DNA of 64,000 bases from the NCBI GenBank assembly GCA_049322675.1, contig JBMORM010000009.1, positions 291,517 through 355,516 on the forward strand, in the 5' to 3' direction. The notes beneath the pieces are model-generated. The model did no database searches, was not told the origin of the DNA, and was given only the letters and a program-made list of their open reading frames with translations. This document shows positions 14,043-55,130 of the stretch, one piece after another (positions within the stretch are counted from its first letter, which is position 1; the number at the start of each line of letters is the position of its first letter). Origin of the DNA: Patescibacteria group bacterium. Its GTDB lineage: Bacteria > Patescibacteriota > JAHJAL01. The translations under genes were made by a program, and so were the position numbers.

Positions 14043-14783
14043 TTATGTCATATTGTTTTTTCGCTTTTCGTATTTTCTTCTCACTTTTGTTTTTCGCCAC
14101 TTTTCAATTTTTTCGTGATGTCCGGACAATAGTATTTCCGGGACCTGCCAGCCTTTATACTGGACTGGTTTTGTGTATTGTGGATATTCCAGTAAATTTG
14201 GGGTGCGACCTTTTTTGTTGGCCCTGATGGAAAAAGATTCCCCTTGATGGGATTCGGTTTTTATGACGCCGGGGACGAGGCGACTAACGGCGTCAATGAC
14301 GACCATAGCGGGAATTTCGCCACCGGTTAAAACATAGTTGCCGATGGAAATTTGTTCATCAACCAGATGTTCGCGAATTCGTTCGTCAAAGCCTTCATAA
14401 TGGCCACAGATTAAGATCAATTGATCGTATTTGGCCAGACGGCGGGCGGTTGATTGGTTAAATGTTTTACCTTGAGGGGTTAATAATATTTTATGGGTTT
14501 TTCGTAGGGGCAGGTCGCGATCTGCCCCTACATTTGGGCGGACACTTTGGTCCGCCCCTACGATATCGGTTAAACATCGGTCCATCACATCAACTTTTAG
14601 GACCATGCCGGCTCCGCCGCCATATGGCGTGTCGTCAACTTGTTTGTGTTTGTCGATAGCCCAATTTCTTAAATTATGAAGATTAATATTGATAATCCCT
14701 TTCTGTTGAGCTTTTTTCAAAATACTGACATCAAAGACGCCAATAAACATTTCGGGGAATAAAGTGATAATGTCGAAGATCAT
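14043..14783 (-). CDS. trmD: tRNA (guanine37-N1)-methyltransferase
   Basis: MIFDIITLFPEMF...DDTPYGGGAGMVLKVD...ILLTPQG...ICGHYEGFDERI aligns to TrmD throughout. The track's longer start (14831) translates the upstream repeat (WKLCLENWEFN), so the start is reassigned to the internal Met. Confidence 0.85.
   Translation of the reverse strand: MIFDIITLFPEMFIGVFDVSILKKAQQKGIININLHNLRNWAIDKHKQVDDTPYGGGAGMVLKVDVMDRCLTDIVGADQSVRPNVGADRDLPLRKTHKILLTPQGKTFNQSTARRLAKYDQLILICGHYEGFDERIREHLVDEQISIGNYVLTGGEIPAMVVIDAVSRLVPGVIKTESHQGESFSIRANKKGRTPNLLEYPQYTKPVQYKGWQVPEILLSGHHEKIEKWRKTKVRRKYEKRKNNMT
14504..14561. repeat. Tandem pair of GC-rich perfect hairpins, both ending in GCCCCTAC, lying in-frame inside trmD
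   Basis: GTAGGGGCAG-gtcgcgat-CTGCCCCTAC has a 10-bp stem. GGGCGGAC-actttg-GTCCGCCCCTAC has an 8-bp stem. The composition is very GC-rich against an AT-rich background. The pair encodes ..VGADQSVRPNVGADRDLPL.., about 15 aa extra relative to E. coli TrmD. Confidence 0.6.
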
Positions 14784-14801: not shown

Positions 14802-14913
14802 TTCAAGGCACAATTTCCAATAAATTCTCAATTTCCAATTTTCAAACGGATTTATTTTTTGAAATTGATCATTGGAAATTTTTTGGAAGCTGGAAATTGG
14901 GAATTGGAAATTT
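14802..14913. repeat. TTCCAAT/ATTGGAA-rich intergenic palindromic repeat (copy A)
   Basis: An imperfect inverted repeat built from ATTTCCAA units flanks a central spacer. It belongs to the family seen again at 15706, 24036, 40250, 45968, 48020, 49140 and 52292. Confidence 0.6.
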
Positions 14914-35648: not shown

Positions 35649-35676
35649 TAGTTTTGGCGGCGGACACTTGTGTTCG
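35649..35676 (+). terminator. Rho-independent terminator about 170 nt downstream of ileS
   Basis: GGCGGAC-acttgt-GTTCGCC is followed by TTTTTT. The stem resembles the GGGCGGAC hairpin found inside trmD. Confidence 0.5.
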
Positions 35677-35738
35677 CCTTTTTTATTTAAGATTGGGGGA
35701 TCTATTTTTTAGAAAAAGCATTTGGGTAGAAAAATAAT

Positions 35739-49280: not shown

Positions 49281-50219
49281 ATGTTTTACGCAATTACCAT
49301 TGATGGGCCAGCGGGCAGCGGAAAAAGTACCTTGGCCCGAAATTTGGCAAAAGAACTAAAAAGTTTTGCAGTCGTTGATACCGGCGCCTACTATCGTTGG
49401 GCAACGCATTTGGCGCTGGAAGAAAAAGTGGACTTATCCAAACAAAAAGTTTTGATCAAGGCGGTCAAGGAAAAATTGACTTTGGATTTTATGCCCTACA
49501 ATCAGAACAATAAGAAATATACAAAATATGCGGCAAAAGTATTGTTTGAAGGTAAAGACATCAATGAAAAACTTTATACCAAAAAAGTAACGGACAATGT
49601 TTCTATCGTAGCGGTTTATCGGCCGCTCCGGGTAATAATTAAAAACAAGATCAAAGAGTTGGCCAAACAGAAAAATATTATTGTCGCCGGACGAGAAATT
49701 GGCACTTATGTTTTGCCAAAGGCGCAAATCAAGTTTTTTATCGAACCACAGATTGATGTCAGAGTTCGACGGCGCTATAAAGATTATGTTAAAGAAGGAC
49801 GCGCAGTCTCATTGAAAGAGTTGAGAGAAAATATTGAAAAACGCGATTATTTGGACAAAAATCGGGAATACAATCCTTTGGCAAAACCTGATGATGCTTT
49901 TGACATAGATAACACCAATTTGTTGCCATCACAGACTTTGAAAGAGGCACTGGACTATATTTACAGAAAAGAGCCGGAGATTAAAAAAATTAAAGATCAG
50001 ACGGTAAAAGAATTGAAAACAGAGGCGCCAAAAGCGACAGCTAGCAATTGTAATGGCAGCAGTTTTCAATCTCCCCTACTGGGATTTGATACTTCGCCTG
50101 TTTCTGCACCTTCTTCAACTTCGACAGTTAAGAGCGAATCAATTAAGGAATTGAAAAAGAGGTTGAAAGCAAAATACAAATCAGATCAATCCGGCGGGAG
50201 TTTTTGGCAGAAACGTTAG
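49281..50219 (+). CDS. cmk: Cytidylate kinase with a C-terminal extension
   Basis: AITIDGPAGSGKSTLARNLA is the P-loop. The core is cmk-like, followed by an unassigned tail of about 90 aa. Confidence 0.75.
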   Translation: MFYAITIDGPAGSGKSTLARNLAKELKSFAVVDTGAYYRWATHLALEEKVDLSKQKVLIKAVKEKLTLDFMPYNQNNKKYTKYAAKVLFEGKDINEKLYTKKVTDNVSIVAVYRPLRVIIKNKIKELAKQKNIIVAGREIGTYVLPKAQIKFFIEPQIDVRVRRRYKDYVKEGRAVSLKELRENIEKRDYLDKNREYNPLAKPDDAFDIDNTNLLPSQTLKEALDYIYRKEPEIKKIKDQTVKELKTEAPKATASNCNGSSFQSPLLGFDTSPVSAPSSTSTVKSESIKELKKRLKAKYKSDQSGGSFWQKR

Positions 50220-50253
50220 AATATATATTTCCAATTTATTGTTTTCAATGTCG

Positions 50254-50279
50254 GGCGGGTTTAAAACCCGCCCCTACGT
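50254..50279. repeat. GC-rich hairpin GGGCGGG-tttaaaa-CCCGCCC followed by CTACG, the same family as the hairpins inside trmD
   Basis: The shared 3' end is CGCCCCTACG. The element is very GC-rich relative to its surroundings. Confidence 0.5.
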
Positions 50280-50303
50280 TATGTCAAAAGACCACAAAAA
50301 AAC

Positions 50304-50335
50304 TCCCGGCATATACGTTTGGACGGGAGTTTTGC
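50304..50335. terminator. Bidirectional hairpin terminator AAAAAAACTCCCG..CGGGAGTTTT, copy 1
   Basis: The stem pairs CTCCCG with CGGGAG and has A- and T-runs on either side. A near-identical copy lies at 51345-51392. Confidence 0.5.
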
Positions 50336-50360
50336 TTTGATTATGAAAAAATTGAAGACT

Positions 50361-51266
50361 TTACTTTTCATAATGATGCAGTTTGTTATATATACTACTT
50401 TCTTTGTTTCTAAAAAATCCTTTTTGATTATCAGGTAATAGATCGGCGATTTTTTGACCAACCATATTTGCTTGTTCTCTCAGTTGTTTTATCACTTCAC
50501 GAAAATCGTCTCTTTCCTTTTGGGTTATTTTCTTTCCTTCTGATCTTTTGTAGAAAACCTCTTCGATGATATTTATTTTCGCAATTTTTTCGAGGGTTAT
50601 CGGTTGGCCGATATGAAAGATTGCTTTTCCATTGGCTTTACCCAATATACCTTTGGCAATATTGACTAGACCTTCCAAACTAATTGAGTTGCCGACAATT
50701 TCTAGGGCGGTCGGAATAATTTTTGTACCAGTTTTTTGGGCTAAATATATTGCTCCGATTTTTGGTTCTTTCATCTCTCCATCTTCATTGAAAGCATGAA
50801 TGGCTATCCATGGAGTTTTGCCGATTTTGATTCTTTCAAATATAGTCTCAAAATTTTTTGGATTAAACACTCCCGATTTTCCTTTGTTGGTTTTGTGATA
50901 ATCGAGGGGGATAAAGTTTTCTTCACCGCCAGTCCGAAATAACAACATACGCTGGGGGGCAAAACGGCGAAACGAAGATGATTCTGCGGTAATCTGCATG
51001 TCGAAAATATCTCCCAATGATTTAATGGCAGCAGGGGCGTCCAGATTGGAAAAATGTGAAGAAGCGATGACATATTTGTTCTCTGGATGTTTTTCTATTT
51101 CTTCTTTAATATTCTCCCTTCCCTCTACTTTAAATTCATTACAAAATTGATTTATCAGCAAATCACCCAGAGACCGCAATCTAAAATCGGTAGTCTTGCG
51201 GTTTTCTTCCACTTTGACGGTTTTGTCCTGGTTTTTAGAATAAAATTCTCTAATCTTACCTAGCAT
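50361..51266 (-). CDS. Lysophospholipid (1-acyl-sn-glycerol-3-phosphate) acyltransferase-family protein
   Basis: The HxxxxD acyltransferase motif (ASSHFSNLDAPA) is present. Confidence 0.6.
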   Translation of the reverse strand: MLGKIREFYSKNQDKTVKVEENRKTTDFRLRSLGDLLINQFCNEFKVEGRENIKEEIEKHPENKYVIASSHFSNLDAPAAIKSLGDIFDMQITAESSSFRRFAPQRMLLFRTGGEENFIPLDYHKTNKGKSGVFNPKNFETIFERIKIGKTPWIAIHAFNEDGEMKEPKIGAIYLAQKTGTKIIPTALEIVGNSISLEGLVNIAKGILGKANGKAIFHIGQPITLEKIAKINIIEEVFYKRSEGKKITQKERDDFREVIKQLREQANMVGQKIADLLPDNQKGFFRNKESSIYNKLHHYEK

Positions 51267-51344
51267 TGAATTTTTTATTAATTTAATTTTAAATCTGATT
51301 ATTGTAGCATAATTTCTTGATTATTTCCAGATATAAATTGGCAT

Positions 51345-51392
51345 AAAAAAACTCCCGGCATATGCGTCGGCGGACACGTAGATGGCGGGAGT
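51345..51392. terminator. Hairpin terminator, copy 2 (AAAAAAACTCCCGGCATATGCG...GGGAGTAAAAAAG)
   Basis: The stem is the same as at 50304. The loop contains CGGCGGACACG. On the minus strand it is followed by a T-run, directly after the stop at 51400. Confidence 0.5.
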
Positions 51393-51399
51393 AAAAAAG

Positions 51400-52176
51400 T
51401 TAGTTTTTGTTTTGATTTTGATTTTTTCCACACCCTACCCCAGGGTCTGGCAAGGTGTGAAAAATGCCGGCGGAGGACCGATCGTCCTCCTTTCTCATCC
51501 GCCAATACCATTTATGGTAATAGGGTGAGAAAAATATTGTTATTACCGTAAATAAAAACAGTAACAATAATAAAAGAAGGTGATCGGTTAAAACATTAAA
51601 ATTACTTGCCACCCAGCCGGCGAGGGCGGCGAAGAGAATGGAAATTCCCCAAGAAATGAAATAATCTAGTGGCAATCCCCCTACCCACGGGGACTTTGAA
51701 TGCCACCAGATATTTTGTGGTTTAAATTTTTCCCACTTATAATGGGGATTTAATATAAACCATAAAAAGTCCCAAAGGCACATGGCGACAAAGTACATGG
51801 CCAATGAGACTAATTCCCCTTTCAAACTCCATGCCAACCCCATGAAAAATTGGACATGGAATATCAAAAGAGGAAAAATGAACATAAAGGAGTGATAACC
51901 TGTCAGTGGTCTCCCTCCTAAAATTTTCATATAAATCTTTGCGGCCAGGCCCCTGGTACGATACCAGGTTGGCATCTTTTCGGCCCAACCGCACTTTCCC
52001 TCGGCCTCGACTTCTATGCCGGCGAGGACGAGGCAAAAAAGAAAAAAGAAGCCGGCTTTTAATAATAAAAAGGAGAAATGCAACATGCAAATCCCCTCCT
52101 TTCTTGAAAAAATTCGTTGCGACAAGAAAGACATGCAAAAAATATTATTACTAGCTGAAAAAATATTTCTTGCCAC
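51400..52176 (-). CDS. Hypothetical polytopic membrane protein (start uncertain)
   Basis: Several TM helices are present (..FFFLFCLVLAGI.., ..FIFPLLIFHVQFFMGLAW.., ..ISILFAALAGWVA..). Confidence 0.4.
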   Translation of the reverse strand: MARNIFSASNNIFCMSFLSQRIFSRKEGICMLHFSFLLLKAGFFFLFCLVLAGIEVEAEGKCGWAEKMPTWYRTRGLAAKIYMKILGGRPLTGYHSFMFIFPLLIFHVQFFMGLAWSLKGELVSLAMYFVAMCLWDFLWFILNPHYKWEKFKPQNIWWHSKSPWVGGLPLDYFISWGISILFAALAGWVASNFNVLTDHLLLLLLLFLFTVITIFFSPYYHKWYWRMRKEDDRSSAGIFHTLPDPGVGCGKNQNQNKN

Positions 52177-52291
52177 AACTTTTTAATGAACAAAAGTGGC
52201 TTTATTGTAGGGCTTTTTCGGTTAATTTGCTAGGGATTCATATTTTGTGAATATGGGAGAAAAATAGTATTATATAAGATAGTGGTTAGCG

Positions 52292-52404
52292 TAAATTTCC
52301 AATTTCCAAGGCTCAATTTCCAAAAAATTTCCAATAGTCAATTTCCAAATGATATAATTCATTGAAAATTGGACATTTTTTGGAAACTGGAAATTGGAAA
52401 TTTA
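52292..52404. repeat. TTCCAAT-rich intergenic palindromic repeat (copy H), just upstream of secA
   Basis: gtaaatttccaatttccaaggctcaatttccaaaaaatttccaatagtcaatttccaaatg ... attggacattttttggaaactggaaattggaaattt. Confidence 0.6.
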
Positions 52405-52427
52405 ATTTTTAATTATTAATTTTAAAT

Positions 52428-55130
52428 ATGAATATTATAAACTGGATATTTGGCGATCCTAATGTGAAGGAGATCAAGAAGCTGCAACCGTTGGTTGATA
52501 AGATTAATGGCTGGGAGGCCGAAATAAGTGGGTTGTCAGATGATGAATTGAAGGGAAAGACTGATTATTTCAAGAAAATTATTGCCGAGAGGTTGGTCAA
52601 AGGTGAGGAGCAGGAAAAAATATTGAATGATCTGTTGCCGGAAGCTTATGCGGTGGTGCGAGAAGCGAGTAAGCGAACGATTGGTTTGCGACATTTTAAT
52701 GTCCAGATGATTGGCGGTATTGTTTTACACCAAGGAAAGATTTCGGAAATGAAAACCGGAGAAGGCAAAACTTTGGTGGCTACTCTTCCTTTATACCTCA
52801 ATGCTTTGACCGGTAAAGGTTGCCATCTGGTGACGGTCAATGATTATCTGGCCAAACGTGACGCGGACTGGATGGGTGAGGTTTTTTACTTTTTGGGACT
52901 AAGCACAGGGGTAATAGTTCATGATCAGTCTTTTATCTTTGATCCGGGGGCGGTTAGAGAAGAAGAAGAAACAGTGGAAACCAAGGGAAAACAGTTGAAA
53001 TTCAGATTAAAGCAAGTCACGCGAAAAGATGCTTACAATGCCGATATTACCTATGGAACGAATAATGAATATGGTTTTGATTATTTGCGTGACAATATGG
53101 TGATTGAATTGTCGCAAATGGTCCAACGGGAGTTGAATTATGCGATCGTGGACGAAGTTGATAATATTTTGATTGACGAAGCGAGAACGCCACTGATTAT
53201 TTCCGGACCGGCGGAAGAATCAAACGAGATGTATCAACAATTTGCCAGTCTGGTGACAAAATTGAATGAAAACACTGATTACAATGTGGATGAGAAAATG
53301 CGAGCCGTGTCTTTGACGGAAGAAGGGATTAGTCATGTGGAAAATTTGTTGGGCGTCAAAAATGTTTATGAAGAAAAAGGGATAAAAACAGTTCATCACC
53401 TGGAGGAAGCTTTGAAGGCGCAGATTTTGTTTAAAGTTGATAAAGATTATGTTGTAAAAAATGGGGAAATAATCATCGTTGATGAATTTACCGGACGTCT
53501 GATGCCTGGTCGTCGTTATTCTCGCGGTTTGCACCAAGCGATCGAGGCCAAGGAGGGAGTGGAAATCAAACGGGAAAGTAAAACTATCGCCACTATTACT
53601 TTTCAAAATTATTTTAGGATTTACAAGAAATTGGCGGGCATGACCGGAACGGCCGTGACAGAGGCGGAAGAGTTGGCGGCGATTTATAAATTGGATGTAA
53701 TACTGATTCCAACCAATAAAGAGGTTGTCAGGAAAGATCTGAATGATTTGATTTATAAAACTGAAGAAGGAAAGTTTAACGCGGTGGCGGCGGATATTAA
53801 GGAAAAAAATTCCAAAGGGCAACCAGTATTGGTAGGTACAATATCGGTAGAAAAATCGGAAACTTTGAGTGATTTGTTGACCAGACAAGGAATCCAACAC
53901 AACGTATTGAACGCCAAGAATCATGAAAGAGAGTCAGATATCGTGGCATTGGCCGGACAAAAAGGGGCAGTGACTATTGCCACCAATATGGCCGGTCGCG
54001 GTACGGATATAAAATTGGGCGAAGGGGTGGAAGATTTGGGCGGGTTACATATTATTGGTACGGAAAGGCACGAATCAAGACGAATCGATAACCAGTTGCG
54101 AGGTCGTAGTGGACGTCAAGGAGATCCGGGATCTAGTCAATTTTACACTTCATTGGAAGATGATTTGATGCGAATTTTTGGGTCGGACAAGATTAAGGGA
54201 TTGATGGAAAAGTTTGGCTTTCCCGAAGATCAGCCGATAGAACACAAGTGGATTACTTCTTCGATTGAAGGCGCGCAAAAGAAGGTGGAAGGCTACAACT
54301 TTGATATTCGAAAAAGCGTAGTTGATTATGACGACGTAATGAATAAACATCGCACCGCAATATACAAAAAAAGACGGATGATTTTGGAAAATGCCAATTT
54401 GAAAGAAGAAATGCAGAAAATAATTCGTCAGGATATAGAAAGTATTGTTAATACTCATACTTCGGGAATTCAGGCGGAATGGAATTTGAAAGAGATAAAT
54501 GAAAATTTTAAAACGATTGTGGGTGCATATTTCGTCCCACAGGATTTGAGCAAATTTGATAACCCCCAAGGAATTATTGATCACCTGTATGAACAGGCGA
54601 TCCTTTATTATGACCACAAAGAAAAAGAACTGACACCGGAGGTGATGCGAAGATTGGAAAAATTGGTGATGCTGAGAATCATAGATAATTTGTGGCAAGA
54701 CCATTTGGATGAAATGGATTATTTGCGAACAGGGGTGGGTTTGCGGGGATATGGACAGAGAGACCCATTAATAGAATACAAAGAAGAAGCATATAAGCTT
54801 TATCAACAATTGTTGTTTCAAATCAATGATCAGATATCAAAAACAATCTATAAAGTGACAATTTTGCAAGCCCCTACCCAACCGGTAAAAGGTCAGGAAA
54901 TAAAAAGAGAGGCAGCGCCTATAACACCGGGCAATAGTCAAAATAGCGGTACTGAGGGAAATGTGCGAACTTATTCTCGATCAGGAAGCAGCGCTTCTTT
55001 GCCCCAGCAAACTAAAGCCAACCCAACCGGAAAAGCGGCAACCGTCACACGCAGCCAACCAAAAGTCGGGCGCAATGATCCTTGTCCTTGTGGGAGCGGG
55101 AAGAAGTATAAAAAATGCCATGGAGTCTAA
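52428..55130 (+). CDS. secA: Preprotein translocase ATPase SecA
   Basis: Both DEAD motor domains are present, and the protein is 900 aa. The C-terminus has the zinc-binding motif [14 protein letters not shown]. Confidence 0.9.

Follow-up and report, generated by a model that had tools for sequence, protein, structure and literature searches.

The 64,000-nucleotide stretch of DNA analysed here (the window) comes from a Patescibacteria group bacterium (contig JBMORM010000009.1, positions 291,517 to 355,516 of the forward strand) and carries the tRNA methyltransferase gene trmD on its minus strand. Inside trmD, in frame, lies an element of 58 bases (window 14504-14561) that consists of two adjacent perfect hairpins. 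On the plus strand, 14504-14531 reads GTAGGGGCAG-gtcgcgat-CTGCCCCTAC with a stem of 10 bp, and 14536-14557 reads GGGCGGAC-actttg-GTCCGCCC with a stem of 8 bp; CTAC comes next, at 14558-14561. Read on the coding strand, the element is GTAG-GGGCGGAC-caaagt-GTCCGCCC-aaat-GTAGGGGCAG-atcgcgac-CTGCCCCTAC-g. Both units finish in GCCCCTAC on the plus strand, an 8-mer that occurred five times in the window against 0.37 expected, a count reached in none of 100 shuffles. The 64 kb hold only seven perfect GC-rich hairpins, of which three terminate in GCCC(C)TAC. Folding of 14495-14570 gave exactly two hairpins, with an energy of -37.7 kcal/mol (z = -6.4) for RNA and -21.1 kcal/mol (z = -5.5) for DNA, and none of 200 shuffles equalled either fold. 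In a sliding 60-nt scan the site was the top-ranked 60-mer of the whole window (-39.2 kcal/mol; mean -9.3, standard deviation 4.0). A first-pass annotation had described two perfect hairpins with stems of 10 and 8 bp, GC-rich against an AT-rich background; sequence, fold and shuffles agreed with it, and the units were 69-71% GC compared to 37% for the window.

The trmD product matched Pfam tRNA_m1G_MT (PF01746) with E = 9e-61 and solved TrmD proteins in the PDB with a best E = 2e-65, and all invariant TrmD residues were kept in an alignment of homologues. The ATG at 14783 was preferred as the start, the mechanical open reading frame (ORF) extending up to a TTG at 14831. The hairpin stretch encodes VGADQSVRPNVGADRDLPLR (V75 to R94), the loop V75-L93 lying within ..DIVGADQSVRPNVGADRDLPLRKTHKILLTPQG, and the 3' unit accounts for VGADRDLPL and the first base of R94. 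When aligned with the PDB TrmDs, the insert fell precisely on a gap of 15-16 residues in the solved proteins, as expected from the earlier statement that about 15 residues had been added before the LLTPQG block. The loop was also confirmed to be specific to the lineage and not general to TrmD: the distance from GGGxGM to PQG was mostly 34-38 residues among 80 bacterial loci, compared to 51 in the window TrmD and 45-69 in its close relatives. In an AlphaFold model built with 29 homologues, the insert was placed between helix 64-80, which follows the GGGAGM motif, and strand 96-107, which leads into the LLTPQG S-adenosylmethionine (AdoMet) loop. Residues 79-92 had a predicted local distance difference test score (pLDDT) below 50, and the remainder of the model matched TrmD crystal structures. 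The model suggests that the insert is probably an extra, disordered surface loop in an otherwise normal TrmD enzyme. Its peptide ends, V-G-A and L-P-L-R, recur in most relatives, and the peptide in between varies in sequence and length.

Several candidate functions of the hairpins were rejected. No intrinsic terminator was called at the trmD hairpins on either strand and no U-run was present, which argues against a terminator or attenuator. No known RNA family was recognized, Rfam giving no match at the site at E <= 1 and only a tRNA-Leu in the whole window. The loop sequences are unconserved and contain no G36-G37-like motif of the kind wanted in an anticodon-arm mimic for TrmD autoregulation. 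A programmed +1 frameshift at CCC-C (..CTG CCC CTA) is not needed, because in each of the 12 genes the zero frame already encodes the complete conserved protein.

By their anatomy, the two hairpins are a pair of GTAG-tagged repetitive extragenic palindromic (REP) units, of the kind found in REPs, REP doublets forming hairpins (REPINs) and bacterial interspersed mosaic elements (BIMEs), inside trmD. On the coding strand GTAG stands directly 5' of both stems, as it does in a further copy at 50253-50277, and each unit is made up of a 5'-GTAG, then a GC-rich stem of 6-10 bp, then a short loop. Among 19 aligned units the GTAG tag was kept in 17, one carrying GTGG and one a mutated tag. With stems of 8 and 10 bp and lengths of 26 and 28 nt, the trmD units have the dimensions of short GC-rich palindromes (20-40 bp, stem 6-13 bp). 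The resemblance of VGADQS to VGADRD, previously taken for a tandem duplication, comes from the REP head GTAGGGGC[G/A]GA, which two units with different stems have in common. The coordinates of these and the other features discussed are collected in Table 1.

Table 1. Features of the trmD element and related hairpins in the window.
Feature	Position	Strand	Description
trmD coding sequence	14043..14783	minus	246 aa + stop; start taken at the ATG at 14783 (MIFDIITLFPEMF...)
5' REP unit	14536..14561	minus	GTAG 14561-14558; 8-bp stem GGGCGGAC / GTCCGCCC; loop CAAAGT; encodes VGADQSVR(P)
Spacer AAAT between units, 4 nt	14532..14535	minus	also in relatives L081, L082, L089
3' unit	14504..14531	minus	28-nt palindrome GTAGGGGCAG-atcgcgac-CTGCCCCTAC; GTAG and CTAC at its ends
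Extragenic family member	50253..50277	minus	between convergent genes, downstream of cmk; GTAG + GGGCGGGTT-tta-AACCCGCCC
ileS terminator hairpin	35655..35681	plus	GGCGGAC-acttgt-GTTCGCC, then T-run; no GTAG; not detected by covariance model
GGCGGACAC fragment	51369..51377	plus	inside terminator-like hairpin; no GTAG; not detected by covariance model

GTAG REPs form a super-family of 24 sub-families in which stems measure 6-13 bp and complementary variants of the stem are frequent; they are often paired with their tags outwards (HH dimers) at a spacing of 1-100 nt (Di Nocera 2013, PMC3733652). Many lie inside genes, more than half of these being dimers that encode 20-30 residues, among them inserts of Pseudomonas putida that begin VGAG.. 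(PMC3733652). The trmD insert belongs to this already documented phenomenon of in-frame intragenic REPs. Its likeness to GTAG REPs, REPINs and BIMEs (Nunvar 2010, PMC2817692; Bertels & Rainey 2011, PMC3116915; Di Nocera 2013, PMC3733652) covers the 5' tag, GTAG or GTGG, beside a GC-rich stem of 6-13 bp with a short loop, the complementary-stem sub-families, the pairs with outward tags 1-100 nt apart, the extragenic copies downstream of ORFs, and, now and then, dimers of 20-30 residues that lie in frame within genes and often begin VGAG... The inverted unit doublet of REPINs and BIMEs, able to fold together, was found in the trmD loops of four relatives (L084, L085, L086 and L089; L numbers are our handles for loci and contigs). 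As in REP systems with a REP-associated tyrosine transposase (RAYT), RAYTs were present on some contigs carrying the trmD-type unit. The trmD case differs from known GTAG REPs in its host, a small AT-rich Patescibacteria genome, in its very low copy number with no RAYT in the DNA searched, and in the orthologous retention of the trmD copy over a deep clade with slower change than at silent sites.

Two other classes of small palindromes were compared. Miniature inverted-repeat transposable elements (MITEs) are likewise small non-coding palindromes that can occupy genes, but they measure 70-300 nt and have terminal inverted repeats of 15-30 bp and a target-site duplication, whereas the units here are 24-28 nt and the element totals 58 nt. 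No target-site duplication was seen at the junctions (..ATC / GTAG...CTAC / GAA..), nor terminal inverted repeats beyond the hairpins. Of the REP/MITE-like family first proposed, the REP part stands, with its GTAG tag, GC-rich stem-loop and widespread copies, and the MITE part does not. Di Nocera related intragenic REPs to the in-frame Rickettsia palindromic elements (RPEs) (PMC3733652). According to the account of Ogata et al. 2000 cited in PMC3733652, RPEs are similar in being in-frame palindromes in a reduced genome whose host proteins are functional and carry the insert as a surface loop, and the genes that carry them include tRNA and rRNA modification genes. In the same account RPE-4 and RPE-6 bear the tag CGTC rather than GTAG, RPE-1 is much longer than the 26-28-nt units, no sequence relation is apparent, and a Rickettsia genome holds many copies, in contrast to one site outside trmD in 64 kb here. 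The trmD element is not an RPE, because both its tag and its size differ.

The trmD loci of the closest relatives were collected from four independent sources (Logan, JGI, ENA and NCBI) and one species-representative genome (L002). No identical TrmD was present in the protein collection, the best match being 94% identical, and species-representative genomes contained TrmD of relatives at <= 64% identity only. GTAG hairpins were found at the same trmD junction in 11 related Patescibacteria genes, down to approximately 55-64% protein identity; the palindromic DNA signature, the lack of which in relatives would have counted against the first-pass annotation, is present in them. In the closest relative (94% identical) both units recur with a few substitutions. 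In L081-L087 and L089, GTAG...CTAC hairpins stand at the junction (..D-I/T / GTAGGGGC ... GCCCCTAC / R-AAAA..), and all of them share the outer ends (..GA[TC] A[TC]C / GTAGGGGC ... GCCCCTAC / R-AAAA..). The more distant L002 and L332 (protein identity about 55-64%) have an inverted unit with CTAC at this place, GGACAGGTT-aca-AACCTGTCC-CTAC.

Between these fixed ends the units vary. L083 has one unit and L082 three, and L084 and L085 show partial duplications of an arm; the single unit of L083 is consistent, as judged from its sequence, with a deletion between the repeated GTAGGGGC heads. The hairpin tips differ by lineage (GGGCGG-AC, -GT(T) and GGGTGGGG; GGGCAG-GTC and -GC; GGGCAAAC). In L084-L086 and L089 the tags point outward (GTAG-unit ... 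unit-CTAC), L089 forming a single long hairpin, and in the window, where a 28-nt palindrome tagged at both ends comes after the 5' unit, the outer ends are GTAG...CTAC too. Two members of the clade, P0011 and P0014, are without an insert; the TrmD loop of L088 contains a GC-rich hairpin that lacks the GTAG tag. Because the GTAG-bearing trmD genes form one clade in a neighbour-joining tree, with unit types largely following its branches, the simplest reading is one old insertion that then changed in place. The trmD insertion is inherited, not recent. The earlier picture of a family member that had landed in trmD without breaking the frame is right about the intact frame; what it took for an arrival in this genome is an inheritance, with the same junction in 11 relatives.

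Side observations on TrmD concern its tolerance of other inserts. The TrmD loop accepts very different kinds, hairpins on the one hand and, in L331 (6227-7030), in-frame AT-rich tandem heptamers, (ATATGCA)x4 and (AATTCCA)x4, which are not hairpins, on the other. In the inter-domain linker of the window TrmD, residues ~186-197 (IRANKKGRTPN) form a small extra segment with pLDDT < 50. In L002 (10545-10815) and L332 (within 1115-1993) the inter-domain linker holds a second in-frame insert of 60-90 residues, packed with GC-rich hairpins; the L332 segment folds at -91.7 kcal/mol and that of L002 includes a ..GCTCCTAC tag.

The conservation of the units was evaluated in the alignment of 19 units. 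Stem cells were paired in 97.4% of cases compared to 85.7% in shuffles, and when the partner columns were slid by 1-3 positions pairing fell to 33-55%. Changes on both sides were found in five of the eight stem pairs, and compensatory cells numbered 26 against 8 expected, with none of 500 shuffles reaching 26; these figures carry the caveat that the structure was derived from the same sequences and that left units are paralogous to right units. Between most of these genes the four-fold silent sites of trmD are nearly saturated, with an identity of 0.22-0.53 to the window. Homologous units were nevertheless 81-96% identical where the compared four-fold sites were 33-59% identical. For L081 versus L085, a four-fold identity of 0.33 was accompanied by a unit identity of 24/26 (P = 5e-10), and for L086 versus L082 the corresponding values were 0.59 and 24/25 (P = 4e-5). 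Since conservation within the units extends to third codon positions but not to the peptide between the ends, the constraint would appear, from these comparisons, to act on the nucleic acid and not on the peptide. All five non-Watson-Crick stem positions in the 3' units are G-T on the GTAG strand, equivalent to A-C mismatches in the mRNA, whereas the ratio in the 5' units was 4:3; as an indicator of the strand that folds, the asymmetry of the 3' units is suggestive, the numbers being small.

Outside trmD, the extragenic unit at 50253-50277 is 24/25 identical to a unit in the trmD loop of L086. A mechanical ORF at 50204-50413 (+) reads through this extragenic REP as ..CRAGLKPAPT... Of the related hairpins first listed for the window, this copy downstream of cmk is a family member; the other two, at the ileS terminator and at 51369-51377, are doubtful, having the 9-mer GGCGGACAC only and no GTAG. 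The ileS hairpin shares 17/20 bases with the stem and loop of the trmD 5' unit and is possibly a relative of the family, or a chance likeness, and it is doubtful that the fragment at 51369-51377 is a relic of the REP family. The 9-mer itself occurs three times against 0.12 expected, always on the plus strand (window 14537, 35659 and 51369). A covariance model of the unit, with which the 5' unit of trmD scores 33.4 bits, was run unfiltered and found no window sites beyond the three units in its training set.

Beyond the Patescibacteria loci, the 20 fixed bases of the left unit (GTAGGGGCGGAC-N6-GTCCGCCC) were found exactly on at least 120 metagenome contigs of 36-70% GC and many habitats (L210-L329). 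Their loops follow the consensus C-Y-R-Y-G-T and many of the units are inverted pairs. This distribution places the GTAG units in a cosmopolitan sequence family. The spread of the 26-nt unit GTAGGGGCGGAC-CYRYGT-GTCCGCCC is strikingly wide for one REP sequence. No trmD locus was found among the 120 contigs. The metagenome copies are mostly extragenic, with three copies just downstream of ORFs on L317; like the unit at 50253-50277, they have the extragenic position near ORF 3' ends that is usual for REPs, and the trmD copy does not. The format of a 28-29-nt palindrome running from GTAGGGGC to GCCCCTAC is common in viral contigs, where many such palindromes are perfect and vary only in mid-sequence. 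RAYTs were identified on two of the 120 contigs (L279 4939-5367 and L319 555-1127), scoring 103 and 118 bits with NCBIfam NF047646 against a cut-off of 80, and these genes were not immediately flanked by units.

Two further observations were made on such units. A doubly tagged palindrome of other sequence, GTAGAGACGC-aaaatatt-GCGTCTCTAC, lies at the contig end of L086 (10627-10654). The same type of partial tandem duplication, in which the loop, the 3' arm and a few bases are repeated once, was found in the trmD unit of L085 (1105-1216) and on an AT-rich, unrelated contig (L268 484-540), which hints at a common slippage mechanism at hairpins.

We favour the explanation, with a probability of roughly 0.6, that the trmD element is a GTAG REP dimer acquired by inheritance, which a permissive loop tolerates and a REP-type constraint preserves. 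A REP dimer would have entered the permissive TrmD loop in the ancestor of this Patescibacteria clade, likely by the route proposed for GTAG REPs, in which the folded single-stranded GTAG strand is recognised by a RAYT (an HUH/Y1 transposase). Because trmD is essential, only in-frame, stop-free versions would have survived, and the GTAG tag itself forbids one frame (TAG). The dimer would then have diversified in place through unit loss between GTAGGGGC heads (L083), partial duplications (L084, L085) and tip turnover. Meanwhile the tags and lower stems would have stayed constrained at the DNA or RNA level, and the TrmD protein would simply tolerate the loop. The likeliest constraint would be continued recognition or conversion by the REP machinery, use by the host being less likely. 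A REP-specific process, either RAYT recognition or conversion from copies, fits the identity of the element and also the left unit of L085, which is identical to the commonest cosmopolitan variant (loop CCATGT).

Several results weigh against this explanation. The family is rare in the window, with three units in 64 kb, two of them in trmD and one outside, and no units outside the trmD loop were found in about 210-223 kb of related Patescibacteria loci, the flanks searched being largely one syntenic neighbourhood. GTAG REPs are by definition repeated and dispersed, usually with more than 100 copies per genome, and in a REP-RAYT system the genome also encodes the cognate RAYT, as a rule with REPs on either side. 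No Y1 transposase or RAYT was found by Pfam among the approximately 35 ORFs of the window. In 337 kb of Patescibacteria DNA, which covers a small fraction of each genome, no RAYT was detected by phmmer and hmmsearch with two verified RAYTs against all stop-to-stop segments. With few copies and no known transposase, the closeness of the trmD units to the cosmopolitan master sequence is hard to account for, and a passive relic should decay at about the silent-site rate, which the trmD units have not done.

These same results bring forward another explanation, that a former REP dimer is now a cis element of trmD selected by the host, as a structure in mRNA or in (single-stranded) DNA, and kept by purifying selection over the deep clade. 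Such an element could set the translation rate or mRNA decay, or could bind a host protein as a DNA structure. The conservation of the units far above four-fold sites would be expected from it, as would the compensatory changes that keep the stems paired while the peptide varies, the most stable local structure in 64 kb, and the GC-rich hairpin in the TrmD loop even of the untagged L088; it would also suit a REP family that is otherwise rare in the DNA searched, with no RAYT in 337 kb. We consider it unlikely, however, since unit number and type vary freely (from one to at least three, with partial duplications), and a clade in which P0011 and P0014 have no insert and L331 has AT-rich heptamers does not resemble one with a fixed regulatory structure. 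The hairpin loops are unconserved and unlike a G36-G37 anticodon loop, and the site has no U-run, no terminator call and no Rfam family. The 5:0 excess of G-T on the GTAG strand (A-C in mRNA) also weakly opposes selection for an mRNA fold, small as the numbers are. The first-pass alternative of a hairpin maintained inside the mRNA is borne out in part: the stems covary and the units are conserved beyond silent sites, though the maintained strand need not be the mRNA.

Repeated, independent hits by REPs on the TrmD loop as a hot spot, for example with an existing GTAG/CTAC attracting units, are a still more doubtful explanation than use by the host. Different unit types in different lineages (GGGCGGAC, GGGCGGGTT, GGGTGGGG, GGGCAGG.., GGGCAAAC and GGGACAGGTT) would agree with this, as would the left unit of L085, which is identical to the commonest cosmopolitan variant with the loop CCATGT. 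REPs are known to cluster (PMC3733652), and the second TrmD loop also gathers hairpin-rich inserts (L002, L332). On the other hand, all lineages have identical outer junctions, the AAAT spacer is common to the window, L081, L082 and L089, and the unit types largely track the TrmD tree. The lower stem is common to the variants, whose differences are at the tip, as expected of divergence in place, and donor copies are scarce in the DNA searched.

It is very improbable that a Gly/Pro/Arg-rich loop is kept for a function of the TrmD protein, such as a contact with tRNA, and that the palindromy is incidental. The recurring V-G-A and L-P-L-R ends would agree with such a function, but the peptide between them is unconserved in sequence and length, the loop is modelled as disordered, the close relatives P0011 and P0014 do without it, and selection on the protein leaves the conserved synonymous third positions in the units unexplained. 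An assembly or binning artefact, in which foreign GC-rich sequence had been spliced into trmD, might be suspected from the strong contrast in composition and from the same REP in many unrelated organisms, but it can practically be dismissed in view of the intact reading frame, the homologous inserts at the same codon in 11 independent assemblies (Logan, JGI, ENA and NCBI) and the 94%-identical relative having the same two units with few substitutions.

Another region of about 1 kb (window 51300-52420), which separates the ORF at 50361-51266(-) from a 900-aa ORF at 52428-55130(+), has an unusual amount of structure. When the 60-mers of the window are ranked by stability below the trmD site, four of the next five fall within 51470-51995 (-27 to -30 kcal/mol); a long hairpin is located at 52290-52410. 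The sole ORF in the region (51400-52176, minus) had no Pfam match, and a search of the region with Rfam gave nothing above threshold, only sub-threshold matches resembling microRNA precursors. The region may be an undescribed structured RNA. Terminator-like hairpins at 50296-50335 and 51346-51393 flank the ORF at 50361-51266 and share their first 24 nt, AAAAAAACTCCCGGCATAT[A/G]CGT; the second of them encloses the GGCGGACAC fragment.

Patescibacteria were not among the eight phyla surveyed in 2013, and trmD is not among the published REP-decorated genes (PMC3733652). In the literature searched we found no paper linking REPs or RAYTs to Patescibacteria, none on palindromic inserts in TrmD, and no description, for single REP loci, of orthologous retention over a deep clade together with slower-than-silent evolution. 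Of note are the host phylum, the essential gene, and the clear evidence that one intragenic REP locus is conserved at the DNA level over a deep clade.

The results add the reduced, AT-rich Patescibacteria genomes to the range of GTAG-type REPs and of their tolerance, in frame, within essential genes. They also carry a warning for annotation, as VGAD..VRP, VGAG..LPLR, RAGLKPAPT and similar peptides come from translated palindromes, in real proteins and in spurious ORFs alike, and those of the RAGLKPAPT type are a likely source of spurious 'hypothetical proteins'. In TrmD, which is a drug target, two loops are marked as accepting large insertions. Finally, one REP dimer that stands at one orthologous codon position in a dozen lineages with nearly saturated silent sites is a natural test case, and it could show what preserves a REP: the transposase, gene conversion or the host.

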